From positions 22,114 through 86,113 of the forward strand of contig VGZV01000001.1 of the NCBI GenBank assembly GCA_016872385.1: DNA of 64,000 nucleotides. Reading direction: 5' to 3'. A program made the position numbers and the translations under genes. A model generated the notes under the pieces. The model was not told the origin of the DNA and did not search any database. It was given only the letters and a program-made list of their open reading frames with translations. This stretch comes from SAR202 cluster bacterium. GTDB taxonomy: Bacteria > Chloroflexota > Dehalococcoidia > Lucifugimonadales > UBA3495. Shown here in pieces: positions 1 through 57,033 of this stretch (position 1 is the first letter of the stretch; every line of letters begins with the position of its first letter).

Positions 1-1493
1 GTACACATATTGATGAGGAAGAGGCAGCCAGAATAGCTTCAGAGGTGGACGCCGTTATTGGCGCCACCGCGCATTGAGGAGGTTGCACGTCGTGGCTTGC
101 CCACGACATGGTTGCCCTGGAAAAGGCTGGCATTCCTGCAGTGGCCATCGCCGCCCAGAGCTTCGCCAGGGCCTGGCAGTCCTGCGTGGACGGATGGGGC
201 CAGCCCAGCACCGCTTTTGTTTGCATCCCGCACGCCACCACCGGCCAGCAGCCGGACTTCATACGCAAGATGGTGGATGAGCAGGTGGATGCCATCATCC
301 GGGGCCTCACTTCCTTACCTGCCTCTGCGGGCATCCCCAGAGGGGCCAGGGCCGGAAGCCGCGCCAGCGAGACCTACACCATCGAGATGGACGCAACACC
401 GGCAGGACTGGATGCGGTGAACCGCTTCCTGGCGGAACGGGACTGGAGCGATGGGATGCCGGTGATACCGCCCACCCCGGCAGCCGTGGAGGCGATGCTG
501 CGCGGCACCCGGCGCAACCCCCAGGACGTGGTCATGGTAATGGAGCCTGGCTTTGGCCTGGCTACCGTTGAGAAAATCGCCGTTAACGCCGTCATGGCGG
601 GCTGCCGGCCGGAGCAGTTCTCCATCCTGCTTGCCGCCATTGATTGCCTGGCGCAGCCTCAGATGAACCACCGGGACATGCAGGTCTCCGGCCATACGGA
701 AGCGCCCCTGATCCTGGTCAATGGTCCCATTGCCAAGAAGGCTGGCCTAAACTGGGGAAGCACGGCCATGGGTCCGGGTGTAGTCAACAGCGCCAACACG
801 GCCGTTGGCCGCGCGCTGCGCCTGTGTCTAATCAATATCGGCTATTGCAAGGCTGGGGCGGGAGACCCCAACTTCGTAGGCCTGCCAAGCAAGTTCGGAA
901 TGTGCCTCGCCGAGAACGAGGAACTGAGTCCCTGGCCTCCTTATCATGTTGACCGGGGATTCAAGCGCGAGGAAAGCGCCGTCACCGTGGTGTCGGTGAC
1001 CGGCCCCACAGATATCATAGACGCCGGTTCCAGGACTCCTGAAGACACCCTGAATAACATCGCCTCTATGATGTTCTACCGCAACGCAGGCGCCGGAGCC
1101 TGGGTCAGGGGTTGGCAGTCCGCCCAGGTTGGGCACACCAACAAGCGGGTCCCTTATCAGGGCCCCTACCATCCCATTGTCCTCAGCCCTTCCCGGGCCG
1201 TGATCTTGGCTGAAGCCGGCATGAGCAAGCAGGATGCCCAGGCCTGGCTGCACCGCAAGTGCAGCATCTCCCTGGAGTCGGTCCTGCGTGGCCGGGGTGT
1301 GCCCAAGGATGGCAGCGGCAAGTGGCTGGCTCACCCTGAGCTGCAACATCTGGAGAACGACCCGAACGCCACCGTTCCTGCCCTGGAGAGTCCAGAGCAG
1401 TACCTTCTCTTTGTCACCGGCGGGACGACCCACTATGCCCACTTCTTTTACGGGACCTACGGCTTGTCAACTGTAGGAGTTGAACCAGTCTGA
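1..1493 (+). CDS. Conserved hypothetical protein with N-terminal UGSC-like redox domain; 5' partial; in-frame TGA 75-77 read as candidate selenocysteine (alternative: separate gene starting ATG108)
   Basis: The frame is open from position 3 to 1493 except for TGA at 75-77. Sequence across the stop is ...EVDAVIGATAH-[TGA]-GGCTSWLAHDMVALEKAGIPAVAI. ATG108 lacks a properly spaced SD. The 461-aa downstream ORF is long and protein-like. Confidence 0.55.
86..110 (+). promoter_or_regulatory. SECIS-like hairpin downstream of TGA 75-77
   Basis: Perfect 7-bp stem 89-95 GTCGTGG / 101-107 CCACGAC with loop CTTGC, plus 2 further pairs (86-87/109-110). The apical loop lies about 20 nt 3' of the TGA. Confidence 0.35.
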
Positions 1494-7886: not shown

Positions 7887-9095
7887 TCAGATGACTCCAG
7901 CACCCCGCAGCCGGCCCAAGTCTTCCAGGGGAATGCCCAGCTCACCACAATACACTTCCTCATTATGCTCGCCAAGCCGGGGTGCGGCACGCAAGGCGCT
8001 CATGGCGTTGGCCCCGTCTATCAAAAACCCTGGGCCCGAATATTTTAGCGGGCCAACTTCCGCGTGCTGCAACTCCACAAAGTAGCCACGCTCCGCCAGG
8101 TGGGGAGAGTTAACCACCTGGTCCGGGCTTTGCACCAAGCCAATCACCAGTCCGCGGGCCATGGTCTCGCGCATCAGGTCCAGGTTGTTCCATTGGGCCA
8201 GCTTGGGAGCTATCAGGTCGCGCAGTTCTTCCCAATTTTCTAAACGCAATTGCCTGGAAGCAAATTTGGGGTCAAGGAGCCGTGGTTCTTGCAGGAATTC
8301 CGCCCAGACCTCCATGGGCCTGCCCCCAGTGCCAGCGGTGGTCAAAGTCACTTCCCCATCCCGGGTTGGCAGGTGCATGCCATCCATGACATTGCGGTCG
8401 CCACCCCCGCGGCGCGGACTGCGTCCAGTGAAACTGTAAGGATGTATCAGCCCGGAAGGGGTGCTTATCGCAGCCTCCATAACCGAGACGTCCAGATGTT
8501 TGCCTTCGCCAGTAGTTTCTCTATGGAGGAGCGCCGCCATCACCGCAATGGCCCCGTTGCGGGCCGCCGTTATCTCCATTTGCTGGAGGACCGTTCCCAT
8601 GGGCGGGCGGTCCGCCGAGCCAGTGACCGCGTAGAGGTACCCGCCCAGAGCCTGGGCTATCAGATCATCCCCCAAGTAGTTCGAGTAGGGGCCGTCTTCG
8701 CCGAAGTAGGTAATGGACACCAGCACCAATCGTGGGTTGACTTGTTTAAGAGCTTCGTACCCTATGGCCAGCCGTTCCATTACGCCTGGCGGAAAACTCT
8801 CAATCACCACGTCTGCTTCCTTGACCAGCCTCACTAACAACTGGCGACCCGCGGCCTGGGCCAGATCCAGGGTAACGCCCCGTTTGTTGGTGTTGAACGC
8901 CAGAAAGGCGGTGCTGCGATCTGGATGAGGCTCTCCTCCAATGAAAGGAGGCTCCCGGCGCGCCAGGTCTCCCTGACCGGGCGGTTCAATCTTTATGCAA
9001 TCGGCGCCCTGGTCCGCCAGCAATTTGGCGCAGAAAGCCCCCGATGGCGCAGCGGCCAACTCCACCACTAGTAAATTGGACAATATGCCTGACAC
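7887..9095 (-). CDS. Family III CoA-transferase (CaiB/BaiF)
   Basis: 402 aa. The N-terminus LLVVELAAAPSGAFCAKLLADQGADCIKIEPP is the CaiB/BaiF signature. GTG start with a GAGGAGGA SD. Confidence 0.9.
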   Translation of the reverse strand: MSGILSNLLVVELAAAPSGAFCAKLLADQGADCIKIEPPGQGDLARREPPFIGGEPHPDRSTAFLAFNTNKRGVTLDLAQAAGRQLLVRLVKEADVVIESFPPGVMERLAIGYEALKQVNPRLVLVSITYFGEDGPYSNYLGDDLIAQALGGYLYAVTGSADRPPMGTVLQQMEITAARNGAIAVMAALLHRETTGEGKHLDVSVMEAAISTPSGLIHPYSFTGRSPRRGGGDRNVMDGMHLPTRDGEVTLTTAGTGGRPMEVWAEFLQEPRLLDPKFASRQLRLENWEELRDLIAPKLAQWNNLDLMRETMARGLVIGLVQSPDQVVNSPHLAERGYFVELQHAEVGPLKYSGPGFLIDGANAMSALRAAPRLGEHNEEVYCGELGIPLEDLGRLRGAGVI

Positions 9096-9125: not shown

Positions 9126-10394
9126 TCATTCCGATTCAGCAGCGGTCTCTCCCAGTTTGGGCGTAGAGGAAATTATTCCTTCCCTGGCCAGTTCCTCAAT
9201 CTCTTCGTTGGACAATCCCGCCACGTCTCTCAGCACTTCATGGTTGTGCTGTCCCAGCGTGGCGACGTGCCGAATCGTCAGATTAACACCTGGCATACGG
9301 AAGGGCCGCCCGGCGTACACCCTGGTCCCAATATGGGGAGCTGCCTGGTTCTCAAATTCTTGCATGTAGTGTCTGCCTTGCATGTGGGGGTCCGCCACCA
9401 GGTCCTGGGCGGTAAGGATGGCGCCGGCACATATTCCACGTTCTTGCAGTGTCCGCATTAGCTGGCGGTCATCCTGTGTGGCGGTCCAGGTTCCCAACAG
9501 GTTGTCCAGCTCGCGGCGATGCTGCCAGCGTCCCAACGTGGTCTGGAAACGGGAGTCCGCCGCCCACGCCGGGTCATTCATTACGTCTTGGAGCGCCGTC
9601 CACTGGGCATCCTCCCACACGGAAATAGCTATCCATCGGTCGGTGCCACGGCAAGGATAGACGTTGTGGGGAGACTTCCACAGGTGGCCGCATCCCACGC
9701 GCGGACGCGTGATTCCGCGTTGGGCCTCCAGCACAGCCGGGCCGATGCACGAAATTCCAGTCTCCTGCATAGCCAGATCAATGCGTACTCCCTGGCCCGT
9801 GCGATTCCGGTGGTAAATGGCCAGCAGCAAGGCGTAGGCTACATTGTTCCCGGTGGAGTGGTCCATGTAATTATTGCTGGCGCGCTGGGAAGGCCCACCC
9901 TCGTACCCGGTGAGAAAAGACATCCCGCAAGCGGCGTCCACCGTGCGGGCGCGGGAACCGGCCCTGCGCCATGGACCAGTGTGGCCATAGGCGGTGCTGC
10001 TTAGGGTGATGATTCGCGGGTTGATCTTGGCCAGGCTAGCATGGTCGAAACCGAGGCGCTGCATGGTGCCGGGGCGAAAGTTGTCCGTTACCACGTCGCT
10101 ATTTTTTGCCAGGCGAAGGAAGACCTCCTTGCCTTTTGGGGTAGTCACTTCCAAGCACAGGCTTTGCTTGTTGCGTGTGCCATAATAGGCCAGGTTCCCT
10201 CCCTCATTCCACCACTCTTCTCCGCGCTGATTGTTAGGGAAGGGGCCGGCTTCGCGGTCTTGCAGGTGATCCACGCTTTCAATGCGGATGACCTGTGCGC
10301 CCAGATCTGCTAAAAACGACGTGCCCCAGGGCAGGGAGTGGACCTGCTCCAAGGTCAAGACCCGTATCCCGGCAAGGATTCCCGGCGTTGACAT
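9126..10394 (-). CDS. Family III CoA-transferase (CaiB/BaiF)
   Basis: IRVLTLEQVHSLPWGTSFLADLGAQVIRIES. ATG 10394 is preferred over 10421 because a GGAGGG SD lies 5 nt upstream. Confidence 0.9.
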   Translation of the reverse strand: MSTPGILAGIRVLTLEQVHSLPWGTSFLADLGAQVIRIESVDHLQDREAGPFPNNQRGEEWWNEGGNLAYYGTRNKQSLCLEVTTPKGKEVFLRLAKNSDVVTDNFRPGTMQRLGFDHASLAKINPRIITLSSTAYGHTGPWRRAGSRARTVDAACGMSFLTGYEGGPSQRASNNYMDHSTGNNVAYALLLAIYHRNRTGQGVRIDLAMQETGISCIGPAVLEAQRGITRPRVGCGHLWKSPHNVYPCRGTDRWIAISVWEDAQWTALQDVMNDPAWAADSRFQTTLGRWQHRRELDNLLGTWTATQDDRQLMRTLQERGICAGAILTAQDLVADPHMQGRHYMQEFENQAAPHIGTRVYAGRPFRMPGVNLTIRHVATLGQHNHEVLRDVAGLSNEEIEELAREGIISSTPKLGETAAESE

Positions 10395-10537
10395 GACGGC
10401 CCTCCGGTGAGGTAAAAGCATCCAGGATGCAATGGCCCGCCGCGGGCGGCCTGGCCCCCATCCTGCATAGTCTGGAACATGGTCCAGGACAGTTTACGGG
10501 CATCCTAGCTGTATCGCCGACGGGAGTCAATCCTCCG

Positions 10538-21766: not shown

Positions 21767-22003
21767 AGTGCACAGCGCTTTTTGAACACGCGCTAGTACT
21801 ACGGCAGTAAATTTGCCTGTCCTGTTGTGTCATGTCCCTGAACTCCCGTTTATCCACAAACGTTGGTATGATGCCGATTTACTTGGGTAAGTGCCATGTC
21901 AATAATACGTTTTGTATATCGTTTTTACGGTGTGGATGCAATTTTTCTTCATAACAGGAGTGCCAAAAGCATTGCACCAGCTTGACCGTGGAGGGTAGAC
22001 TAA

Positions 22004-22031: not shown

Positions 22032-22056
22032 AAACGGGGAGGAGTCGGAGTAGGCT

Positions 22057-24975
22057 ATGCGCGTGACCTTTACGGCGCACTTCTTGTCTGGGCCGTGGTG
22101 GGCGGGAATCTTCCTGGGCGTACTGGCCCTGTTCCTGGCGGTGAATATCCGTGCCAGTGAGGCCATGTCTTGCCCGGCGGGTTCCACGGCTGGCGACATC
22201 GGATTTGGAGAGCACATAGCATGTTCCATTGATGTCGCAGGTGAACAGGATTTTTTCACATTCAGCGGGGTCAGCGGTGAAGCTGTGTACGTGCGGGTGG
22301 CCCGCACCAACCCATCGCCTCTGGTCCTGGAGGCCCGCATCTTCCGTCCGGACAATTCTTCCCTCTGCAACGGCACCACCGCTTCCTTCAGCGATACGGC
22401 ATGCGTGCTTAACGTGACTGGCACATTCAAGATAAGGGTTTCCAATCCCGTCTCCAGCGCCACTGGGCCATACGTGCTTTACCTGCAAAACTTGACCACC
22501 CCAGTGAACGCTGCCGCCGCCAGCTATGGCGACAACTATCCGGGCAATCTTGCTGCAGGGCATGTGGCAGCTTTTACGTTCAGCGCTTTGGCGGGAGAGA
22601 ATATATTCGTGCGTTTTGCCCAGGCAGCGCCTTCGGCCTCTCTGGACCCCGAATTCAAGATTTACGGATCCGGCGGCGTCGCGCCGGTTACTCTTCTGGG
22701 GCAGGACTGCAAACGCTTCTCCTCCACCAGTGCCTTCAGAGACTGCAATATTGATGTGGATGACGCCTACACTGTGCTGGCCTTTGACCACAACGCCAGC
22801 GGTTCCGGCGATTACGTCTTTTACCTTCAGAACGAGAGCCATCGGCAAAATACCACGGTCACTACCTTTGGACAGAACTACTCGGGAATCCTCGGCCCGG
22901 GCCAAGTAGCCGACTTCACCTTCACCGCAGCTGAGAATGAGGCAGTTTACGTGCGATTTGCCCGCGCCGCCGCTTAGGCCAGCTTTGACCCGCAGTTGGA
23001 GTCCTACGATGCCGACGGCGGCTGGTTTTGCGACGGCTTTGGCGCCCACTATGCGGTGCTGGGCTGCACCATCGCCTACACCAACGGCACCCACACGGTC
23101 CTGGCCTTTGACGAAAACGGCTACCATGACGGAAGCTACGTTTTCTATTTGCAGCGGTTGAACGACCCAGTCAATGCCACGGTTTTGCCCTTTGGAGCCA
23201 CCTTGCCTGGAAGCATTGGCCCTGGGCAAGTGGCTGCCTATACCTTCAACGGAGTCGCCGGCCAGGAAGCCGATGTGGAAGTCATGGAGTCGGGGCCAAT
23301 GTCCCCGGAGTTTGAAGTGTATGGAGCCGAGACTTGGTGCTCCGTTTGGGACCAAAGTGTGGCCACACTTACTTGTCCCCTGGACAATGGTGTGCACACC
23401 ATCCTGGTCTATGACCATGTGGCGCATAACAGCGGTTCCTTTGAGATTACCCTTTGCCACACGGAGACTGGCTGTGTGGTGGCGGAAAATGCCAGCATCT
23501 CCTTAGTGAAAAAGACTAACGGCCAGGACGCCAACAGTGCGCCAGGCCCCACCTTAATTGTTGGAGACCCCATAACCTGGACTTATGAAGTCACCAATAC
23601 CGGCACGGTGACGCTCACCAGCGTCATGGTCAGTGATGATCAAGGGGTGGCGGTTAACTGTCCCAGCAATTTGCTTGCTGCGGGCGTATCCATGACTTGC
23701 ACCGGCAGCGGCGTGGCGGTAGCAGGGCCGTACAGCAATATTGGCAGCGTTACAGGCGCTCCGCCCGCTGGTGACCCGGTGGCTGCACAAGACCCAAGCC
23801 ATTACTTTGGCGTGAACCCCACGCACCTGAAGCTGGTGAAAGTGGTGGTGAACGACAACGGCGGCACTGCGGCGGCCACGGACTGGACCCTTTCTGCTGC
23901 TGGGCCAACGCCCCTGAGCGGGGCAGGGGAGGTGGAGGGCGACGTTGCGCCGGGCACTTATGCTCTTTCAGAGTCCGGGCCAGCCGGATATGCCACCACG
24001 GGGTACGATTGCGGGGCATCGGTGACCCTGGCGCTGGGAGAGTCGCGCACCTGCACCATCACCAACAACGACGTCCCGGCGCACCTGAAGCTGGTGAAGG
24101 TGGTGGTGAACAATAACGGCGGCGCTGCGGCGGCCACGGACTGGACCCTTTCTGCTGCTGGGCGTACGCCCATTGGAGGCGCGGGCGGCGCTGAGGGAGA
24201 TGTCAGCGCCGGTACTTACACCCTCTCCGAGTCTGGGCCTGGGGGTTACACCACCACCGGCTACGACTGCGGGGCGTCAGTGATCCTGGCGCTGGGAGAG
24301 TCGCGGACCTGCACCATCACCAACGATGATATGGTGCCTGATACTGCTAAGCCAGTCTGCACCATGACCGCGTACGCCACCGACCAAAACGGCAAGCGTT
24401 ACATTGAAATGTCGGTGCAGGACGCTCAGAGTGGTCTGTATAGCATTACCGTGCTGCACGTGGTCAACGCAGTAGTTACCGGTCTGACCGACCCCACCGT
24501 GGGAGTGCCCAACCTGATGGGCGGCACTACTTTGCCCGTGGCAGTTAGGGCCACCCAGATTAATCTTGGGCAGGGGCTTCAGTTGCAGTTCCTGGCCAAG
24601 GACGTGGCGGGAAACAAGGTTGCTTGTGATCCCATTGAAATCCCCATTGAACGGGGACGGGGGAAGCCGGTGACTGTTACCGTGACCGATGAGGTGCCCG
24701 GTTGCCCGGAGTGCGGCATCCCGCCAGGCACCGGGGTTGTTGCCATCATTCAGAACGGCGACCCGGGCGTGCTGCAACTGACGCTGGTGGTCAACCGGAC
24801 ATCATGGTCTTTGCGAGGGCTGGAAGCAAACGAGGAGCGAACCCTGGATATCTCGTCGGCCATCGCTGCCAAGGAGGCGGCCATCAACACTTTTTCGGTA
24901 ACCGTCCACGGCAAACCCTCCAAGGACGACGTGGCTAGGTCGGCGCTAATCACCATTCTCTGGCCCGCACCCTGA
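22057..24975 (+). CDS. Secreted or membrane-anchored multi-domain repeat protein (4 PPC-like beta-sandwich modules, DUF11-like domain, 2 prealbumin/SpaA-like repeats, C-terminal domain) with one in-frame TAG at 22975-22977
   Basis: Track ORFs 22057-22977 and 22996-24975 share one frame. The TAG sits inside module 3 (VRFARAAA-*-ASFDPQLESY versus VRFAQAAPSASLDPEFKIY in module 2). The N-terminus has a signal/TM segment. Confidence 0.8.
23824..24339 (+). repeat. Tandem duplication, 2 x 258 bp (86-aa domain HLKLVKVVVN-NGG-AAATDWTLSAAG...GESRTCTITN)
   Basis: Units 23824-24081 and 24082-24339 are largely identical at nucleotide level at both ends and diverge in the centre. Confidence 0.9.
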
Positions 24976-25007: not shown

Positions 25008-25041
25008 GGCAGGCCGCCTATTGGGCGGCCTGCCTCTTTTT
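25008..25041 (+). terminator. Rho-independent terminator after the secreted repeat protein
   Basis: 11-bp stem GGCAGGCCGCC / GGCGGCCTGCC, loop TATTG, followed by TCTTTTT. Confidence 0.85.
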
Positions 25042-25134
25042 ACTTTGGAGCCTGGGCGAGTTGTGAGTCTACCCATCGCCCGTTTTGACCCGCCGTCTAT
25101 AATACCCTGCAGAGAAATTGCCGGAGCTGTCCCA

Positions 25135-26290: not shown

Positions 26291-26394
26291 CGCCGAGGAT
26301 GAATCAACCCAGGTAAAGCCGCTGCTGGTATTGACAAGCCGTCAATTTATGCTAGTCTATGTATTCGCAATCAGTTACACTAACTGCCATTATT

Positions 26395-26844
26395 ATGAGC
26401 AACCAAGAACAAGTGATAGAGTCCTTGCGGGCCAGGGGCTACCGCTTGACCCCCCAGCGGCTGCTGGTGCTGAGCATCATTGCCGAAGGCGGCGGGCACA
26501 TGGGAGTGGACGAAGTATTCCAGCGAGCCAAGGCGGCCTACCCGTACATGGACATCGCCACAGTGTACCGCAACCTGCACCTGCTGAAAGGGTTGGGGGT
26601 GGTCACCGAGGTGGCCATTGGCGACCGCCTGCACTACGAGCTTACTGATCCCAACGGCCACCACCATCACATGGTCTGCCGGGTATGCCGGGGCGCTTTC
26701 AACCTCAGCCCCCATTACCTGGAGGAGTTCCGGCAGGTGTTGACCCGGGACTTTGGCTTTGAACCGGACCTGGACCACTTTGCCGTGTCCGGCGTCTGCG
26801 CCTCTTGCCACGCTGCGGGCGGGGAAGCGCAAGGGGCTGGATGA
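26395..26844 (+). CDS. Fur family transcriptional regulator (Zur-like)
   Basis: LRARGYRLTPQRLLVLSIIAE...VYRNLHLLKGLGVV...HHHHMVCRVCRG...C..C. The stop overlaps the SBP start (ATGA). Confidence 0.85.
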   Translation: MSNQEQVIESLRARGYRLTPQRLLVLSIIAEGGGHMGVDEVFQRAKAAYPYMDIATVYRNLHLLKGLGVVTEVAIGDRLHYELTDPNGHHHHMVCRVCRGAFNLSPHYLEEFRQVLTRDFGFEPDLDHFAVSGVCASCHAAGGEAQGAG

Positions 26845-27860
26845 CCATGCGTTGCAGGCTGCTTGGCGTCCTGGTTATGCCTTTGCTCATGGTCGTAGTG
26901 GGTTGCGCCCAAAGGCCAGCCCCTGCGTCCCCGACAGCCCCTGGACTGGGGCTGCAAGTGGTGACCACCGTATCTCCCATCACCAGCATTGTGGAGAACA
27001 TTGGCGGTGTACGTATTCATCTGGAAGGCATTGTGCCGGAAGGGACCAACTCCCACACTTTTGAACCTGCGCCCTCGGTGGCAGGGGCGCTTGCCAAGGC
27101 GGACCTTATCATTGTGAATGGACTGTTTCTGGAGGAGCCGACGCTGGCGATGGCCCAGGCTAACAAGAAGCCTGGTGCGGTAATTCTGTCCCTGGGCGAC
27201 GGGACCATCTCTAAAGACCAGTGGGCCTTTGACTTCTCCTTTCCAGAATCAGAAGGGCACCCTAACCCCCACCTCTGGCCGGACCCGCTTCTAGGCTTGA
27301 AGTATGCAGAACTGGTGGAGGCGGAACTGTCCCGGCTGGACCCCGCCAACGCCAATTACTACCAGGAGAACCTGGGCAAGTTCCGGCAGCGCATTGAGGC
27401 CCTGGATGCAGGCATTCGCGCCGCCGTCCAGACTATTCCGCCCGGCCGCCGCAAACTGCTGACCTACCACGATTCTTGGGCCTATTTTGCCCGCCGGTAC
27501 GGCATGGAGGTCATTGGCGCGGCCCAGCCCTCGGACTTCTCGGAGCCTTCGGCCAAGGAGGTGGCCGGCTTGATTGACCAGATCCGCCAGCAGCAAGTCC
27601 CGGCGGTGTTCGGTTCAGAAGTGTTCCCCAGCACGGTGCTGGAGACTATCGCCAAGGAAGCTGGGGCAAGGTATGTTGATGAATTACGGGACGACGATCT
27701 GCCTGGCGCGCCTGGAGATACCCTCCATTCCTACCTGGGCCTGATGCTGCAAAATATGGAAATCATGATTCCCGCCTTGGGCGGCACGGTGGACTCCTTA
27801 TCTGGCTTTGATGCCAGCCCGGTATTCTCCGGCGCCAGTCCGGCAATCTACCTGCAGTAG
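26841..27860 (+). CDS. Metal ABC transporter substrate-binding lipoprotein (ZnuA/TroA cluster 9)
   Basis: Lipobox MVVVGC. VVTTVSPITSIVENIGG and HPNPHLWPDP motifs. Confidence 0.85.
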   Translation: MTMRCRLLGVLVMPLLMVVVGCAQRPAPASPTAPGLGLQVVTTVSPITSIVENIGGVRIHLEGIVPEGTNSHTFEPAPSVAGALAKADLIIVNGLFLEEPTLAMAQANKKPGAVILSLGDGTISKDQWAFDFSFPESEGHPNPHLWPDPLLGLKYAELVEAELSRLDPANANYYQENLGKFRQRIEALDAGIRAAVQTIPPGRRKLLTYHDSWAYFARRYGMEVIGAAQPSDFSEPSAKEVAGLIDQIRQQQVPAVFGSEVFPSTVLETIAKEAGARYVDELRDDDLPGAPGDTLHSYLGLMLQNMEIMIPALGGTVDSLSGFDASPVFSGASPAIYLQ

Positions 27861-27869
27861 CTGTAAGTC

Positions 27870-28748
27870 GTGCTTCATCCTACTCCGCATCACCGGGCGC
27901 CGGGCCAGCCAATCATTGAGCTGCGCGGAGTCACCAGCGGGTATGAAGGCCAGCAAGTGCTGCGCCAGGTTGACCTGCGGGTTATGCCCGGCGATTTTAT
28001 TGGCTTGCTGGGCCCCAGTGGTTCCGGCAAGACGACTTTGTTGCGCACTATGCTGGGCGCGGCCCACATTTTCCACGGCGAAGTCTTGGTCCACGGCGTT
28101 TCCATTGCCCGGCAGCGGCCCCAGGCGGGATACGTGCCCCAGTTGGAAACCATAGACTGGAACTTTCCGGTCACGGTAGCTGAGGCAGTGATGATGGGCC
28201 GCACCATGAACAACGTCCTCTTTCCCTGGCACCGGCGTCAGGACTGGAAGCTGGCCCGGGAGATGATGGACCGGCTGGGCATTTCCCACCTGGCCCGGCG
28301 GCACATTCGTGAGCTGTCCGGCGGGCAGCAGCAACGGGTGTTCCTGGCCCGCGCCCTGGTCAGCAGTCCCGATTTGCTGCTTTTGGACGAACCCACCAGC
28401 GGCGTGGACATCAAGACCCGCGATGATGTGATGCACCTGCTCCATGAACTGAACCACCAGGGCGTCACCATCATCCTTACCACCCATGAAATCAACGCCG
28501 TGGCCGTGCACCTGCCCTGGCTGGTCTGCCTTAACGGGTACGTTCTGGCCGAAGGCCCGCCGGCCAAGGTCATAACCTCGCAGGTCCTCAAGCAGACCTA
28601 TGGCGCCGAGATGCCGGTGATTAACTACCAGGGCATGATGCTGGTGGCGGAAAGCCCGCACCCGTTTAACCGCAACGGCGGCGACTCCAGCCGTAACGCC
28701 GGAGGGCAGGGCGCGGCCGAAGCAGGCGCTGCGGACAGCCATGCTTGA
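27870..28748 (+). CDS. Metal ABC transporter ATP-binding protein (ZnuC-type)
   Basis: Walker A GPSGSGKTT, signature LSGGQQQR, Walker B LLLLDEP. Confidence 0.9.
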   Translation: MLHPTPHHRAPGQPIIELRGVTSGYEGQQVLRQVDLRVMPGDFIGLLGPSGSGKTTLLRTMLGAAHIFHGEVLVHGVSIARQRPQAGYVPQLETIDWNFPVTVAEAVMMGRTMNNVLFPWHRRQDWKLAREMMDRLGISHLARRHIRELSGGQQQRVFLARALVSSPDLLLLDEPTSGVDIKTRDDVMHLLHELNHQGVTIILTTHEINAVAVHLPWLVCLNGYVLAEGPPAKVITSQVLKQTYGAEMPVINYQGMMLVAESPHPFNRNGGDSSRNAGGQGAAEAGAADSHA

Positions 28749-29616
28749 GCCTTTTCAATACCAGTTCTTTGTCCGTGGCCTGGCGGCGGCGACCCTGGTG
28801 GGCGGGCTGTGCGGCCTCATCGGCGTATACATCGTCCTGCGCCGCATGGCCTACATAGGGCATGGGCTGTCCCACTCGGTGTTTGGCGGCGCAGTGGTCA
28901 GCTACGTCATGTCCTTCAATTTTTTTGTGGGAGCCAGCCTGTGGGGCTTCCTCTCCGCCATTCTCATCACCCTCACCACCAGAAAACATAAGATTGGCTC
29001 CGATGCGGCCATTGGCATTATCACCACTGCCAGCTTTGCCTTGGGCATTGCCCTGATTAGCCGGTACAAGACCTTCACACGCAGCTTCGATGCAGCCTTG
29101 TTCGGCAACATCCTGGGAGTCACGCAGGGCGACTTGCTGGCCATTGTGGTGGTGGCGGCGGCCACCGCCATAATCCTGTTCTCTGGCTACAAACTCTTCT
29201 TGTTTGCCACCTTTGAACCGGAAGTCTCCCGCTTTTACGGCGTGCCCACGGGCTGGGTTGACACCCTGTTTTCCTTGGTGCTAGCCGCCACCATTGTGGT
29301 GTCCATGCAAATACTGGGCGTCACCCTCATCGCCGCCGCCATCGTCATACCGCCCATAGTTGCCCGGCTGCTCACCGACAGCTTCAAGACCATGATCCTG
29401 CTCTCCACTGCCGTGGGAGCTTTTTGCGGGCTGGCCGGGGTCTACATCAGCTACTATGTGGACGTGTCCTCCGGGGCCAGCGTGGTGCTGTTTTCCGCTC
29501 TGGTCTTTGTGGCGGTGCTGGCCTACTCCAACCTCAAGACCCGGCTAGCCCTAGCCGCTGGCGCAGGCGGCAGGGCGGGGCACCATCACGCCGGAGACAC
29601 CAGTCCCTTCCACTAG
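28741..29616 (+). CDS. Metal ABC transporter permease (ZnuB-type, ABC-3 family)
   Basis: 291 aa, polytopic. Overlaps the ATPase gene by 8 nt. Confidence 0.85.
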   Translation: MLEPFQYQFFVRGLAAATLVGGLCGLIGVYIVLRRMAYIGHGLSHSVFGGAVVSYVMSFNFFVGASLWGFLSAILITLTTRKHKIGSDAAIGIITTASFALGIALISRYKTFTRSFDAALFGNILGVTQGDLLAIVVVAAATAIILFSGYKLFLFATFEPEVSRFYGVPTGWVDTLFSLVLAATIVVSMQILGVTLIAAAIVIPPIVARLLTDSFKTMILLSTAVGAFCGLAGVYISYYVDVSSGASVVLFSALVFVAVLAYSNLKTRLALAAGAGGRAGHHHAGDTSPFH

Positions 29617-31106: not shown

Positions 31107-32353
31107 ACGTGGGGCACCGTCCAACGCTTATAGCCTCTTTCCTGCATTTTGACGTCAGTTTCATGCTCTGGGTGCTGCTGGGCGCACTGGGCGTGTATAT
31201 TGCCGAGAGCTTGGGACTTACGTCGGCGCAGAAGGGCCTCATGGTGGCGGTGCCCATCCTCAGCGGGGCGCTGCTGCGAATACCTCTGGGATTGCTTAGT
31301 GACCGCTTTGGTGGAAGGCGCATTGGCGCCGGATTGCTGGTCTTCCTGTTTTTGCCTTTGACCCTGGGCTGGCGGATGGGCGACAGTCTTCCGGCGCTGC
31401 TGGGCATTGGCCTTATGCTGGGGGCGGCAGGCGCGTCCTTTGCCGTGGCATTGCCCCTGGCCAGCCGGTGGTATCCCAAGGAGCGGCAGGGCCTGGTCAT
31501 GGGAATAGCCGCCGCGGGCAACAGCGGCACGGTCATCGCTAACTTGCTGGCGCCGCGGCTGGCTGCTTTAGTTGGATGGCACAACGTGCTGGCGCTGGCC
31601 ATGCTGCCCCTGGCGGTGGTCTTGCTGGCCTTCGTGCTTATGGCCAAGGAACAACAGCAAGTTGCATCCCAAAGGTGCCCTGCCCTTGCTGCTGGCGGCC
31701 CAAAGTTCTTGGCCCTGAAACAAGCGGACCTCTGGTGGTTCTGCCTGTTCTACAGCGTCACCTTCGGAGGCTACGTAGGGCTGAGCAGTTTCCTGCCCAT
31801 TTTCCTTAGAGACCAGTACCACGTTGCGCCAGTGACCGCTGGTTACCTGACTGCCGCTGCTGCGGTAGTAGGCAGCGGCCTGCGCCCGGCGGGCGGCTAT
31901 CTGTCCGACAAATTTGGCGGCGTGGCCATGCTCACCGCCCTGCTGCTGGGCATCAGCCTGGTGTATGTGCTAGCCAGCCGCCTGCCCGCCCTGGGCATCA
32001 TGATGGTTCTGATCATCGCCGGGATGGCCTGCCTGGGCATGGGCAACGGCGCAGTTTTCCAGTTGGTGCCTCAGCGGTTCTCTGGGGAAATTGGCCTGGC
32101 CACTGGAATTATCGGGGCCTTTGGCGGCTTGGGCGGTTTCTTCCTTCCCAATTTGCTGGGGAATGCCAGGGAAGTTAGCGGCTCCTTTGGGCCGGGTTTG
32201 CTGGTGCTGGCGGGGGCTGCCTTGACCGCACTGGTGGCGTTGCGAGTCCTGGTGCTGGTGGAAAACGGCTGGCGCCGGGCCTGGGCGCAGCCTACCCCGG
32301 CGCCTGAAGCAGTGCCGGGGAGAGTCATTATGGTCCCTTACCTGCAACCCTAG
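31103..32353 (+). CDS. narK: Nitrate/nitrite MFS porter (NNP family, NarK/NasA-type)
   Basis: 12-TM profile. NNP signatures IAAAGNSGT and GIIGAFGGLGGFFLP. ATG 31103 overlaps the upstream stop (ATGA). Confidence 0.85.
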   Translation: MNVGHRPTLIASFLHFDVSFMLWVLLGALGVYIAESLGLTSAQKGLMVAVPILSGALLRIPLGLLSDRFGGRRIGAGLLVFLFLPLTLGWRMGDSLPALLGIGLMLGAAGASFAVALPLASRWYPKERQGLVMGIAAAGNSGTVIANLLAPRLAALVGWHNVLALAMLPLAVVLLAFVLMAKEQQQVASQRCPALAAGGPKFLALKQADLWWFCLFYSVTFGGYVGLSSFLPIFLRDQYHVAPVTAGYLTAAAAVVGSGLRPAGGYLSDKFGGVAMLTALLLGISLVYVLASRLPALGIMMVLIIAGMACLGMGNGAVFQLVPQRFSGEIGLATGIIGAFGGLGGFFLPNLLGNAREVSGSFGPGLLVLAGAALTALVALRVLVLVENGWRRAWAQPTPAPEAVPGRVIMVPYLQP

Positions 32354-32388
32354 TTGAGCACTCTGGGAGGGCGGAAAGGAGGCGCACT

Positions 32389-33945
32389 ATGAAACCCGGC
32401 AACAACCCCATGGAAAAAATCAAGGCTGAGAAAGATGGCCTGGACATTCTCCAGGAGATTGACGAACTGGCCGCCAAACACGGCGGCTGGGAGACCCTGG
32501 ATCCCGGCGACCGGGAGCGCCTCAAATGGATTGGCACTTTCTTCCGCAAACCCACCCCTGGGCTGTTCATGATGCGGATACGCATCACCAACGGCCAGGC
32601 TACCAGCGCCCAGTTGCGCGCTTTGGCGGACATTGCCCAGCGGTTGGGCAACGGGGTGCTGGACTTGACTACCCGCCAGCAGGCGCAGCTCCGCGCGGTC
32701 AAAATCCAGGATGTGCCTCAAATCATTCAGGCGCTGCAAGGGGTGGATCTGACCTCCTTGCAGACCGGCCTGGATAACATCCGCAACATTAGCTGCTGTC
32801 CGCTTTCCGGCCTCACTGCCAACGAGTTGCTGGACGCTTCGCCCGTGGGCGTTGAATACACGCGGATGTTTCTGAACAACAAGGAGTTCTCCAACCTGCC
32901 CCGCAAGTTCAACGTGACCATTACCGGGTGCCTGGAAAACTGCACCCATGCCGAGACCCAGGACCTGGGTATGACGCCGGCCGTGCGCACCTCCGACGGC
33001 CAGCCCGGTTTCAACGTGGTGGCGGGGGGCAAAATGGGTTCCGGCGGTATGACCGTAGCCCAACCCCTGGACATTTTTGTCACGCCCCAAAACGCGGCAC
33101 GGCTGGCGGCCCAGGTCACTCTGCTGTTCCGGGACGAAGGCGTGCGGGAGCAACGAAACAAGGTGCGGCTGGCCTTTCTCATCCAGGCCTGGGGTGTGGA
33201 CAAGTTCCGGGCAGCCCTGGAGGACCGCTGGGGGCTTCCCCTGGAGCGGGCCGGCCGGGATGTGCGCCATGCTGTTCACACGGACCACCTGGGCGTGCAG
33301 CGGCAGAAGCAGCCTGGCATGTATTCCGTGGGCCTGTGTGTGCCCACGGGCCGCATAACCAGCGAACGGATGCAGGAGTTGGCTCTTCTGGCCGATAGAT
33401 ACGGCAGCGGCCACGTACGTTTGACCAACGCCCAGAACGCTATTCTGGTCAACGTGCCCCAGCATCGCCTGACCGCCCTGCTGTCCGAGCCGCTGCTGCG
33501 CGAGTTGTCGCCGGTGCCTTCCGCCTTCCATCGTGGGCTGGTTACCTGCACCGGCGTGGATTACTGCAACCTGGCCTTGATTGAGACTAAGGGCACTGGC
33601 CTGGCCTTGTCCAACGCCCTGGCCCGGCGGTTTCCCGGTGCATCCAACCTTACCATGCACTGGTCGGGGTGTCCTGCCGGATGCGGCAACCATCAAGCGG
33701 CGGATGTGGGGTTCCAGGGGGCCAAGGCGCGGGTCAACGGCCAGGTGGTGGATGCAGTAAGCATATTTGTGGGCGGCCGCACCGGCACCGAGCCCAAGCC
33801 TGGCGAAAAAATCATGGAACTGATACCCGTAGATATGCTGGAAGAGGTTGTGCCCGTCGTTCTGCGGCACCTGGAGGTGCTGAAAAAGGTTACCCGGGAT
33901 TCCGAGGCTGAGTCCCGTGTTTTGATGGTCCCGGTGCTGGTTTAA
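32389..33945 (+). CDS. nirA: Ferredoxin-dependent nitrite/sulfite reductase (siroheme, 4Fe-4S)
   Basis: 518 aa. Cluster-binding Cys motifs TCTGVDYC and SGCPAGCGNH, in a two-half NIR_SIR architecture. Confidence 0.85.
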   Translation: MKPGNNPMEKIKAEKDGLDILQEIDELAAKHGGWETLDPGDRERLKWIGTFFRKPTPGLFMMRIRITNGQATSAQLRALADIAQRLGNGVLDLTTRQQAQLRAVKIQDVPQIIQALQGVDLTSLQTGLDNIRNISCCPLSGLTANELLDASPVGVEYTRMFLNNKEFSNLPRKFNVTITGCLENCTHAETQDLGMTPAVRTSDGQPGFNVVAGGKMGSGGMTVAQPLDIFVTPQNAARLAAQVTLLFRDEGVREQRNKVRLAFLIQAWGVDKFRAALEDRWGLPLERAGRDVRHAVHTDHLGVQRQKQPGMYSVGLCVPTGRITSERMQELALLADRYGSGHVRLTNAQNAILVNVPQHRLTALLSEPLLRELSPVPSAFHRGLVTCTGVDYCNLALIETKGTGLALSNALARRFPGASNLTMHWSGCPAGCGNHQAADVGFQGAKARVNGQVVDAVSIFVGGRTGTEPKPGEKIMELIPVDMLEEVVPVVLRHLEVLKKVTRDSEAESRVLMVPVLV

Positions 33946-34015
33946 CACCAGCAACAGCGATCGCATGACCGTTCCGCCTGGGTATTTGAATAGCTTGTGT
34001 ATAAGGAGGCCAGCC

Positions 34016-34333
34016 ATGAAGATGATACGTGCGGTGGTCCGCCCGGAAAAAGAGGAAGCCGTAGGTGCAGCCCTGGCCAAGGCTGGGTTCCCGGCGCTTA
34101 CCAAATGGGATGTGGTGGGGCGGGGCAAGCAACAGGGCATTCAAGTGGGCAGCCACATTTATGATGAGCTGGCCAAGTCCCTGGTGCTAATAGTGGTCAA
34201 TGATGACCAGGTGGAAAAGGCAGCCAAGGTGATTCATGATGCAGCCTTCTCCAGATATCCGGGCGACGGCAAAATCTTCGTCACGCCGGTGGATACCGCT
34301 TATACCATCCGCACTGGCAAGTCAGAGCTTTAG
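34016..34333 (+). CDS. P-II-like nitrogen regulatory protein (short non-canonical T-loop)
   Basis: MKMIRAVVRPEKEE...VVGRGKQQGIQVGSHIYDE...GDGKIFVTPVDTAYTIRTG. An AAGGAGG SD precedes ATG 34016. Confidence 0.85.
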   Translation: MKMIRAVVRPEKEEAVGAALAKAGFPALTKWDVVGRGKQQGIQVGSHIYDELAKSLVLIVVNDDQVEKAAKVIHDAAFSRYPGDGKIFVTPVDTAYTIRTGKSEL

Positions 34334-34607: not shown

Positions 34608-36825
34608 CTATTGCACCAGCAGGCCGGCGCATTCTCCAGGCGCGCCAACGAACCCCAGGGCGGTAGCCGCTGCGTTGGGGATGTACTGCACCTTGAAGGA
34701 GTAGGTCCCCACCGCCAGCGGGCCATAGTTGCTGGACTGGGCGGTTGTGACACCGCTGCCGCCGCTAAGGGCCACTGTTTGCATGGAGGCAGGCCGGACA
34801 TTGCAGCTTGAGGTGCCTGTGAAGTATGCAATACTCACGCTGCCCGTTGGCGTCGCCGATGGGTCGCTACTGGTGATTGTGGCCTTGACATAGACGGAGG
34901 ACCCGGAGGCCACTACCTTCACGTTGCAGTTGTTGAAATTGCACAAAGCCGTGGCCGGAGGAACTGCCAGGACCTCCGTGCCCACAGTGGCCACTGGCGG
35001 CGGCACAATGGTGAAGGAATAAACAAACGGGGCCATGACGTTGCCCGCCAGGCCCCCGGCTTCCACGGTCACATCCACTACCTGGGAATTGGCAAAGTTA
35101 ACGGCTGGGTCGTAGGTCAGCGTGTAATCCGCCGCCGAGCCGGTGATGGCTGGTGACACCACGGTTCCTTCCACCGTCATCTTCAGGCTGGAGAGGTTGA
35201 CCCCTGCGGCCAAGTCTTTCACGTGCACCACAATGTTGGTGTAAACGGGTACGTTGGTGGCTCCCGGCAGCGGGTCGTGGCCCGAGGTGAAGGGCGGGGT
35301 TACGTCCAGCACCGTGACCACTGCGGTGTCGCATCCTGCGCCGCCGTTGTTGTCGGTTACGCAAACGGCGGCGTTAAACGCGCCTATGGAGTTGTAAGTA
35401 TGGCTCAAGGCAAAGGTCTTGCTGGCCGTCAGGGTCAACGGCTGAATGCCTGAGCCGTCGCCGTAGTCCACGGTGGCTGTCCAGGTATCACTGCCGGCGT
35501 CAGTAAAGGAGCCGGAACTGGAAAAAGCGGCACCCTGGTTGATGGTGGCATCGGGGCCTGCGTTCACCACCGGCGCCACGTTGGCAACCACTACTGAGGC
35601 AGTGTCTGTCCCGCTTTTGCCCAGGGTGTTGGTGACTTTCAGCCCTATGCTGAAAGTCCCGTTGTCGGAAAATACCACTGCTACCGTAATTCCGGTGGCA
35701 TCATCGTATAGATTGTCGTTGTCCAGGTCCCACAGGTAGGTTAAAGCGCTGCCGCCGGGTTCGCTCGATCCTGTGCCAGTGACGGTCACGGCGCTGCCTT
35801 CAGCTCCAGCATAAGGTCCGACAGCCTCTGCAGTGGGTGGCGGCAGGGGAGTTGGCGTCGGCGCCGGAGTAGGCGTCGGCCCCCCCTGCGACTCCGCCGC
35901 AGTTGGTGGCGCCGCTGTCGGTGAAGGTCTTGCCCGCCACCGGAATAAATTGCCAGTCGTAGCTGGTGGGGTGCAGCGTAAGTTTGAGCACGCCGTGAGT
36001 ATTGGCGTTACGGACCTCGCTATTGGGCAAAACAGTGCCAATGCGCGACAGTCCAGCTCCGCCGGTGCCTACGGTAATCTGCCGGAAGCCGTTTACGGGG
36101 TCGGCTTGGCCTGCCGGGTTCTGCAGGCCAAATCGCTCGTAGATGTGTTCATGGGCATTGAGCACCACGTCCACACCGTTGTCGTAAAGAATCTGGAGCA
36201 TCGGAATGATGTTGGGATTGACGCCGCCATGGGTGGTGCCGGAGCTGAAGGCCGGGACGTGCCAATAGGCCAGCAAGCACTGAGACCTGCTGCGGCCCGC
36301 CAGGTCGCTGAGCAGCCAGCTGGTTTGAGCAGAACTGGGGCTGCTGAGGGAGACCACGTGCCATGCGCCCAGGTCGTAACTGTAGTAACCCAGCCCGTTT
36401 GGACCTGCGTTGGCCCCGAAATAGGTATAGTAGGGCACGCCGCCGGTGCCTTGCATATCGTGGTTGCCCGGGGCAGGCTGGGTGCGGGCCTTGTGGCGTC
36501 CCCACACCGGGTCATAACAGTTGTTAAAGTTGTCGGTAGTGCCGCTGGGGTACACATGGTCCCCCAAGGTAAGCACAGTGCCCGGAATACTGTCCACCAG
36601 TGTGGCGGTGGCTGAGTCGGTGGTGAAGTTACAGCCCGCAATGTCACCGGCTGCCACCACCACTGGGTCGGTCACTTGGCCGGGCGCCTGACTGGCGGCG
36701 AAATTGTCAAACACCTTGAGGGAATTGTAGGCAGTCGGGAGTTGGTACAGCACGCCAAACAAACTGGCCAGCAGCACCAGCGCTGCAACAGGCCACCAAC
36801 GCCGCAATCGCATAAACAGCATCAC
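34608..36825 (-). CDS. Secreted metallophosphoesterase fused through a Pro/Thr linker to PKD and Ig-like domains; interrupted by a 1-nt indel in a G7 run
   Basis: Track ORFs 35800-36825 (GDHVYP...GNHD...NAHEHIYER calcineurin-like motifs, N-terminal TM/signal) and 34608-36041 (PTPTPAPTPTP linker, PKD-like YLWDLDNDNLYDD..) overlap out of frame. They join at the C7/G7 run 35880-35886. Confidence 0.8.
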
Positions 36826-55314: not shown

Positions 55315-57033
55315 CTACACCAGGAAGAATAACTGGGCCAGGCTCAGGCGCTCCGCCGGGGGCACGGTAGCCAACTCGCCGTCTACCCGCACCTGGTAGG
55401 TGTCCGGGTTTACCTCGATGTGGGGCGTGCGGTCGTTGCGCACCATCTGGCGCTTGGTGATGGTGCGGCAGCCCAGCACCGGCGCCACCATCCGCCGCAG
55501 CCCCAGCTGCTGGTGCACCCCCAGCTCGTAGGCGCGGCGGGAGACGAAGGTGACGCAGGTGCGGGCCAGGGCTGACCCCAGCGCCCCGTACATGGGCCGG
55601 TAAAACTGCGGCTCGGCGGTGGGGATGGAGCCGTTGGGGTCGCCCATCAGCGCCCAGGCCACCATGCCACCTTTGATAATCATCTTGGGCTTGGCCCCAA
55701 AAGTGCCCACCGGCCACAGCACAATATCCGCCAGCTTGCCCGGCGTCAAAGACCCCACCAGGTGGCTGATGCCGTGGGTGATGGCTGGATTGATGGTCAA
55801 CTTGGCCAGGTAGCGCAGCACCCGGAAGTTGTCATGCTCCGCAGCGTCCTCCGGCAGCTTCCCTTTCATCTGCTTCATCTTGTCGGCAGTCTGGAACAGG
55901 CGGGTAAAGTTCTCGCCCACCCGGCCCATGGCTTGGGAGTCGGAGGAGTACATACTTATGACGCCCAGGTCGTGGAGCACATCTTCCGCGGCCATGGTCT
56001 CCGGGCGGATACGGCTCTCGGCGAAGGCCACGTCCTCGGCCACGCCGGGGTTCAGGTGGTGGCACACCATCAGCATGTCCATGTGCTCGGCCAGGGTGTT
56101 GACCGTGTAGGGCCTTGTAGGGTTGGTGGAGGAGGGCAGCACGTTCAGGTGGGCAGAGATGCGGATGATGTCCGGGGCATGGCCGCCGCCCGCACCCTCG
56201 GTGTGGTAGGTGTGGATGGTGCGGCCCGCGATGGCGGCGATGGTGTCCTCCACGAACCCAGCCTCGTTCAGGGTGTCGGTATGGATGGCCACCTGCACGT
56301 CGTGGGCGTCAGCCGCCCGCAGGCAGGCGTCAATGGCGGCGGGGGTGGTGCCCCAGTCCTCATGGAGCTTCAACCCGCAGGCCCCGGCCTCGATCTGCTC
56401 CTCCAGCGGGGAAAGTTCGCTGGCGTTGCCTTTGCCCAGCAGGCCCCAGTTGATGGGCAGCGCCTCCGCCGCCTCCAGCATCCGGTGGATGTGCCACGGG
56501 CCGGGGGTGCAGGTGGTGGCGCGGGTGCCGTCGGCGGGGCCGGTGCCGCCGCCAATGTGGGTGGTGATGCCGTTGGACAGGGCGTGGTACACCTGCTGGG
56601 GCGCAATCATGTGGATGTGGGTGTCTATGCCGCCAGGAGTGGCGATAAGGTGTTCCCCGGCGATGACTTCCGTGCCCGCGCCCACCACCAGGCTGGGGTC
56701 CACTCCGTCCATGACGCCGGGGTTGCCCGCCTTGCCGATGCCAACGATGCGGCCATCCTTGACCCCCAGGTCGGCCTTGATGATGCCCAGCAGGGGGTCC
56801 ATGACGATGACATTGGTAATCACCAGGTCCAGAGCGCCGTTGCGGTTGGTGGCGTTGGGGGACTGGCCCATGCCATCCCTGGCGGTCTTGCCGCCGCCAA
56901 AGACCAGCTCGTCGCCGGGGGTAATCAGGTCCCGCTCCACCTGGCAGATGAGGGATGTATCGGCCAGCCGGAACCGGTCCCCGGCGGTGGGGCCATAAAG
57001 CTCAGCGTAGTGGCGGCGGCTAATGCGGGCCAT
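55315..57033 (-). CDS. ureC: Urease alpha subunit
   Basis: 572 aa. [41 protein letters not shown] and other urease active-site motifs. Confidence 0.97.

Follow-up and report, generated by a model that had tools for sequence, protein, structure and literature searches.

Positions 22057-24975, on the forward strand of the 64-kb stretch of DNA analyzed here (the window), probably hold a lineage-specific gene for a secreted or surface protein that was interrupted by a recent nonsense mutation. The gene occupies a single reading frame of 973 codons (frame 1), which opens with ATG at 22057 and closes with TGA at 24973-24975, and the TAG at 22975-22977 is the sole stop inside it (gcc gct TAG gcc agc). 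The ORF listing accordingly divides the frame into ORF1 (22057-22977, 306 aa) and ORF2, which shares its frame and runs from a TTG at 22996 to 24975 (659 aa). When the stop is read through, ORF1 and ORF2 give a 972-codon reading, and 665 codons are open past the TAG with no second lesion.

Gene organization and source

An earlier reading of this DNA, made from the letters and the ORF list and referred to below as the sequence-only reading, had placed two ORFs in one frame, split by nothing but the TAG; its coordinates are correct by both the sequence and the ORF list. The host is a freshwater SAR202 (Chloroflexota) bacterium, and the MAG on record for this SAR202 cluster bacterium lists the two products as adjacent "hypothetical proteins", MBM3941346.1 (FJ316_00180) and MBM3941347.1 (FJ316_00185). 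The GC3 of the ORF2 stretch is 0.70, similar to that of the neighboring genes.

Long open stretches that share a frame and are split by one stop occur ten times within the window, so such a pair is not rare. Of the other pairs, those that were checked (HlyD/AcrB and two CoA-transferases) are complete separate genes. What exceeds chance at 22975 is that, in the structure predicted below, one folded domain crosses the stop. The features of the locus are collected in Table 1.

Table 1. Features of the interrupted gene and its flanks, with positions counted along the window
Feature	Position	Strand	Basis or remark
Promoter-like TTTACT-17-AATAAT, upstream of ORF1	21878..21906	+	Consensus scan alone, 9/12 matches, weak
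Shine-Dalgarno-like GGAGGAGTCGGAG (GGAGGAG/GGAG)	22038..22050	+	Read from sequence; proximal GGAG 6 nt before ATG 22057
Putative signal peptide, aa 1-36 (MRVTF...WWAGIFLGVLALFLAV NIRASEA)	22057..22164	+	Inferred from hydropathy
PPC-type beta-sandwich module 1, aa 37-144	22165..22488	+	Internal alignment; homology to PPC-module proteins
PPC-type module 2, aa 145-258	22489..22830	+	Alignment; TCG Ser codon opposite TAG
PPC-type module 3, aa 259-366, broken by stop	22831..23154	+	Alignment and AlphaFold2 model
In-frame TAG, codon 307, module position 53	22975..22977	+	Loop between strands 4 and 5 of module 3
TTG, earliest possible ORF2 restart codon	22996..22998	+	Inside strand 5 of module 3
PPC-type module 4, aa 367-467	23155..23457	+	Alignment
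CLIPPER_2/DUF7507 domain (PF24346)	23497..23814	+	48.3 bits vs cut-off 27, profile 2-104 of 105
SpaA_2 (PF19403) repeat 1	23824..24072	+	Pfam
SpaA_2 (PF19403) repeat 2	24082..24330	+	Pfam
C-terminal region, 214 aa, no detectable relatives	24331..24972	+	Pfam, PDB sequences, word-indexed search
Intrinsic-terminator-like hairpin and T run	25008..25044	+	12-bp stem, 10 G-C pairs; after ORF2

Repeat modules and the position of the stop

Upstream of the CLIPPER_2 domain the protein carries four modules of ~100-115 aa that align mutually, and this internal alignment confirmed the four ~110-aa repeats described by the sequence-only reading. An exhaustive HMMER search with modules 1-4 against 1.84 billion representative proteins returned 2249 relatives at E <= 0.001, and the best non-self matches were 30-40% identical. 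PF04151 scored above its cut-off in the modules of nine of the ten relatives scanned, reaching 130.8 bits in P0015 and 115.8 bits in P0014 against a cut-off of 25.9. Neither ORF1 nor ORF2 gave a Pfam match to PF04151 at E <= 0.1, and the gathering score was not reached. Membership of the window's modules in PF04151 is therefore by transitive homology, because homologs at 30-40% identity match the family and the modules themselves do not.

Module 3 was aligned end to end with 41 other modules (three from the same gene and 38 from homologs, 42 sequences altogether), and the near-invariant positions that lie past the stop are retained in it. An AlphaFold2 model built with this 42-sequence alignment, in which the stop was read through, folds module 3 into a single sandwich of nine strands (pLDDT 94.2, pTM 0.86). 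The top Foldseek match of the model is the PPC domain of Bacillus anthracis collagenase (5sv5; E 7e-6, TM 0.76), and further matches are the collagen-binding domains of ColG and ColH (1nqj, 3jqw). As modeled, module 3 is a beta sandwich of the PPC/collagen-binding fold, and some weak agreement comes from searching PDB sequences with a profile, which found PliG at E 2e-4 and 5sv5 at E 0.004. The earlier assignment of the modules to the PPC type thus holds, both through the PF04151 matches of their homologs and through the superposition of the module 3 model on PPC/collagen-binding domains.

The stop falls in the third module, as had been recognized from the letters, and the model places it between strands 4 and 5, flanked by E38-45 and E54-59. 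In the 42-sequence alignment the stop column is a mostly gapped, variable loop. Module 3 is thus incomplete in both ORFs: ORF1 would hold strands 1-4, and ORF2 would start within strand 5. The TAG stands opposite a serine of module 2 (AAPSASLDPE vs AAA*ASFDPQ), and the alignment bore out the earlier observation that the codon of this serine is TCG, one substitution from TAG.

Among the relatives inspected, the modules of homologs continue unbroken through the equivalent region (for example in P0013-P0016 and P0026), and one exception was found, P0130, with a frameshift in its own third module. P0130 (L022), which comes from a repeat-rich contig of 1434 bp, is the closest relative of ORF1 at 40% identity. 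Its frameshift lies in the same loop and was considered as a shared recoding site; the lesion is a different one (a G run of four bases, against five in the next module) and the contig is short, and we treated the two as unrelated.

Domains downstream of the stop

The sequence-only reading had seen a DUF11-like domain, two SpaA-like repeats and a C-terminal domain of ~200 aa downstream of the modules, and profile searches confirm the DUF11-like domain and the repeats. The DUF11-like domain is matched by PF24346, and the same region also scores 24 bits with TIGR01451. PF19403 scores 137.3 bits in two stretches, with a gathering score of 25. The C-terminal 214 aa gave no match in Pfam, among PDB sequences or in a word-indexed protein search, the last of which was lossy and missed ORF2 itself, and a single-sequence AlphaFold model of this region had a pLDDT of 33. 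Both the domain combination and the C-terminal region with no relatives appear to be lineage-specific.

CLIPPER_2/DUF7507 and SpaA_2 have recently been described as isopeptide-cross-linked extracellular stalk domains that are present in Chloroflexota too (PMC12617251). Candidate isopeptide residues are visible in the sequence (LVKVV...LSESG...TITN). Comparison of SpaA_2 repeat 1 with repeat 2 gave a dS of 0.70, a dN of 0.10 and a dN/dS of 0.14, a codon pattern which indicates that the downstream part has been translated under purifying selection for most of its past. It follows from this ratio that the stop would be recent relative to the divergence of the repeats, or that the region would still be in use.

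Transcription and translation signals

ORF1 is preceded by a Shine-Dalgarno-like sequence and, further upstream, by a weak promoter-like match (Table 1). Its N-terminus is signal-peptide-like, with a mean Kyte-Doolittle hydropathy of 2.50 in the top 15-aa window followed by NIRASEA. The N-terminus of ORF2 has no hydrophobic stretch (top window 1.03). Both results are in keeping with the earlier suggestion that a first piece would retain the signal peptide and a second would have none. The TTG at 22996 sits 19 nt past the stop, and no Shine-Dalgarno match was found in the 20 nt upstream of it (AGGCCAGCTTTGACCCGCAG). No terminator-like site was found at the ORF1-ORF2 junction and those inside ORF1 are short, weak matches only, whereas a strong candidate follows ORF2. 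Because no comparably strong terminator-like site lies between them, ORF1 and ORF2 probably form one transcription unit.

A shared transcript and a TTG close to the stop are what a functional pair of genes would have, with ORF1 secreted and ORF2 made by reinitiation at TTG 22996, and the NCBI annotation does list two proteins, MBM3941346.1 and MBM3941347.1. The split between strands 4 and 5, however, leaves an incomplete domain in both products, the TTG lacks a Shine-Dalgarno sequence, and no homolog that starts at this point was found among the relatives inspected. A signal peptide is also missing from ORF2, whose CLIPPER_2 and SpaA_2 domains are of the kind that forms extracellular stalks (PMC12617251). 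Because of the split fold, the missing Shine-Dalgarno sequence, the non-hydrophobic N-terminus of ORF2 and the extracellular nature of its domains, we consider a designed two-gene arrangement very unlikely. The sequence-only reading had left a recent nonsense mutation and a two-piece product as alternatives; the split sandwich and an ORF2 with neither Shine-Dalgarno sequence nor signal peptide favor the former.

Reproducibility and reading of the TAG codon

ORF1 ending at the TAG is carried by nine contigs, of which five are listed: ENA ERZ27247963, Logan SRR7990525 and SRR7052952, and IMG 3300020603 and 3300020074. Compared across as much as 3.8 kb, the five listed contigs are 100% identical to the window DNA. 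Both IMG data sets come from the series of 24 metagenomes that Tran et al. 2021 (PMC8245535) described for Lake Tanganyika. All sampled assemblies from this lake have TAG as their consensus, and the site is not a homopolymer. Because identical DNA was recovered in assemblies from different libraries and different pipelines, the TAG is not a sequencing or assembly error. The sequence-only reading had named reads with TCG or TGG at 22975-22977 as evidence against an interrupted gene; neither codon appeared, and several independent assemblies carry TAG there. An exact-product look-up with ORF2 returned no record. With all sampled copies identical, nothing at the population level points to relaxed selection past the stop. 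The locus has one mark of a nonsense pseudogene, namely a premature in-frame stop that cuts a conserved domain and is reproduced in independent data.

The reproducibility of the TAG is that of assembly consensus contigs, in which alleles of lower frequency are invisible. Null alleles commonly segregate at genes for surface proteins, and an intact allele, for example one with TCG, could coexist with a TAG that wins the consensus, in which case the gene would carry a segregating loss-of-function polymorphism and not a fixed one. Such coexistence is unlikely, as several separate libraries share the TAG consensus and no fused protein was recovered, either from the 1.84 billion representatives that were searched exhaustively or by two junction-spanning word-indexed searches, which were lossy.

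TAG is also an ordinary stop in this DNA. It ends 26 of the 61 crude ORFs in the window, more than any other stop codon. Among these ORFs are the neighboring genes for ZnuA and ABC-3, in both of which the Pfam profile is matched up to its end; the earlier judgment that TAG is an ordinary stop in the window and that recoding is unlikely is upheld. Recoding of TAG by pyrrolysine or otherwise finds no counterpart within the 64-kb window, where TAG is the commonest stop and the only tRNA is a tRNA-Pro. The data come from a metagenome-assembled genome and TAG is one base from seven sense codons, both of which would suit an artefact or a TAG recoded through pyrrolysine or a suppressor tRNA. Yet the identity of the DNA across libraries and pipelines at a site outside any homopolymer speaks against the former, the use of TAG in 26 of 61 ORFs with tRNA-Pro as the sole tRNA in 64 kb speaks against the latter, and we regard this pair of explanations as extremely improbable.

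Read-through of the TAG, whether leaky or programmed, would yield a short secreted two-module protein together with a fraction of the full 972-residue isoform. It would fit an ORF2 that is open over 665 codons with its domains intact, a TAG that is the consensus in all sampled assemblies, and a stop placed in a loop that is variable and mostly gapped and should accept nearly any amino acid. No stimulatory RNA structure was found after the stop, however (fold z = -0.20 vs shuffled sequence), and among the ordinary stops of the window TAG is the most frequent. No inspected homolog has a stop at the equivalent position, the tandem-module relatives that were inspected having sense codons throughout, and a young mutation would leave the downstream frame equally open. 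In bacteria, few cellular genes are subject to programmed read-through. Taken together, these points make read-through improbable, and it is more doubtful still that the TAG is purposely retained as a leaky stop, from which a short secreted PPC-module protein would be made in abundance and a full-length surface protein with its stalk only rarely. If it were so, a free-living Chloroflexota bacterium would offer a cellular case of regulated stop-codon read-through.

Searches for orthologs

A comparison with orthologs, which the sequence-only reading had proposed as a check, found none, split or intact, and the best relative is 40% identical; a gene pair that is naturally split at this place, which would have told against an interrupted gene, was neither found nor excluded by these searches. 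A full-length word-indexed protein search returned no such architecture and no fused allele, and a junction-centered one returned no fused protein. Both searches were lossy, the first having missed ORF1 and the second ORF2, and their negative results are weak because known self-matches were missed. The exhaustive HMMER search of 1.84 billion representatives, for which modules 1-4 alone were the query, contained no fused protein and no ortholog. When the full protein was searched against GTDB species genomes, 15 loci were returned, the source genome not being among the results; each of the 15 matches the DUF7507/SpaA_2 part only, and tblastn on these 15 loci found neither the N-terminal modules nor the C-terminal region. 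Conversely, none of the 150 best relatives of the PPC modules has the DUF7507/SpaA_2 part or the C-terminal region. A metagenome scan with ORF1 yielded one distant relative at 28% identity.

Proposed history of the gene

The most probable history begins with one ancestral gene at 22057-24975 for a secreted or cell-surface protein of 972 residues. We infer this one-gene ancestry from domain continuity alone. The ancestral protein would have had, in order, a Sec-type signal peptide, four PPC-type modules, a CLIPPER_2/DUF7507 domain, two SpaA_2 domains and the C-terminal region with no relatives. A single base substitution would then have produced the TAG at codon 307. The change of TCG (Ser) to TAG is the most parsimonious, C to A being the simplest origin because the aligned codon of module 2 is TCG; the other six sense codons that lie one base from TAG are also possible ancestors. 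The mutation is presumably young, because the downstream frame is fully open and its domains are intact. A perfectly open ORF2 is equally predicted by continued use, through read-through or restart.

After such a substitution, translation would end at a surface loop within module 3. A fragment of ~270 residues, with two whole PPC modules and four orphan strands, is expected to be made and exported, and the 665 codons downstream would go all but untranslated. At most a trace product would come from basal read-through or from weak reinitiation at TTG 22996, and any reinitiated product would have no signal peptide. Both the identity of the ancestral codon and the loss of function are put forward on this reasoning, and the mutation may have been fixed by drift or by selection for loss of the surface protein.

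Comparison with known systems

The practical value of this analysis is an annotation correction, in that MBM3941346.1 and MBM3941347.1 are better taken as the two parts of a single disrupted PPC/CLIPPER_2/SpaA_2 surface-protein gene. The locus would add another surface-protein gene that a point mutation has inactivated within a natural population, an ordinary event that involves no new mechanism and would fit either drift or selection against a surface structure.

With the secreted proteins that carry tandem PPC (PF04151) domains, the gene shares modules of ~105 aa and the motif G..Y.F....G..v.vr....DP.l.lY...G...C.....YtilA.D..g...G.Y.lyLQ. Among the relatives inspected, the chain past the modules either continues into SLH, dockerin or RTX domains or ends, whereas here it continues into CLIPPER_2 and SpaA_2 domains, and the gene differs further from tandem PPC proteins in having no peptidase domain. 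With isopeptide stalk proteins and fibrillar adhesins (PMC12617251) it shares one PF24346 and two PF19403 domains, all above their cut-offs. Unlike those proteins it has just these three domains and no long tandem stalk, and the gene is interrupted; no surface anchor (LPXTG, SLH or OmpA) is recognizable in its sequence.

The closest parallel in the lesion itself is with bacterial nonsense pseudogenes. Proven examples differ in that here the ancestral state is proposed with no intact ortholog among the searches made. The resemblance otherwise extends to a single in-frame stop within a conserved domain, halves that are annotated separately, a downstream half with no start signals of its own, and a reading frame that carries no further lesions.

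Architecture and nearest relative of the disrupted protein

Downstream of the in-frame TAG, the two SpaA_2 repeats (PF19403) of the disrupted protein share 81% identity in DNA (201/249 nt) and 83% in protein (69/83 aa), with a dN/dS of 0.14 between them. The pair is an old internal duplication in which constraint has been maintained. No relatives of the 214-aa C-terminal region were detected in Pfam, among PDB sequences or by a lossy word-indexed protein search, and it may be a lineage-specific domain for anchoring or binding.

The nearest relative of ORF1, the 306-aa reading frame that ends at the TAG, is P0130 (40% identity), carried on the 1434-bp contig L022. P0130 is frameshifted in its own third PPC module, in the loop equivalent to the stop-bearing loop of ORF1, because a run of GGGG stands there versus GGGGG in the next module. 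This frameshift is likely to be an assembly or sequencing error, or else an independent lesion.

Features of the disrupted protein, its relative and other genes of the window
Feature	Position	Strand	Remarks
CoA-transferase family III paralogue	7887-9095	-	window
CoA-transferase family III paralogue	9126-10421	-	window
SpaA_2 repeat 1	23824-24072	+	window
SpaA_2 repeat 2	24082-24330	+	window
C-terminal region, 214 aa	24331-24972	+	window
Fur-family regulator, ZnuA-type binding protein, ABC ATPase, ABC-3 permease	26359-29616	+	
596-aa ORF	32350-34140	-	coding-like GC3 0.66
PKD / Big_5 domain protein	34608-36041	-	window
Urease alpha-subunit gene	55315-57033	-	Urease_alpha and Amidohydro_1 domains
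5_ureB_sRNA match	56583-56884	+	Rfam, 98.8 bits
P0130 frameshift	L022, about 981-1010		JGI Ga0683327_0381555

Other genes of the window

Just downstream of the disrupted gene lies an apparent metal-uptake operon, consisting of the Fur-family regulator, the ZnuA-type binding protein and the ABC ATPase and ABC-3 permease, in which TAG is the stop codon of both the ZnuA and the ABC-3 genes. The two CoA-transferase family III paralogues are complete, arranged in tandem and in a shared frame, and a single stop-bounded gap separates them. The 596-aa ORF, which had no Pfam match at E <= 1e-5, is adjoined by the gene for the PKD / Big_5 protein. The 5_ureB_sRNA match falls within, and antisense to, the urease alpha-subunit gene, and its score probably reflects conserved urease coding sequence rather than a genuine antisense sRNA.
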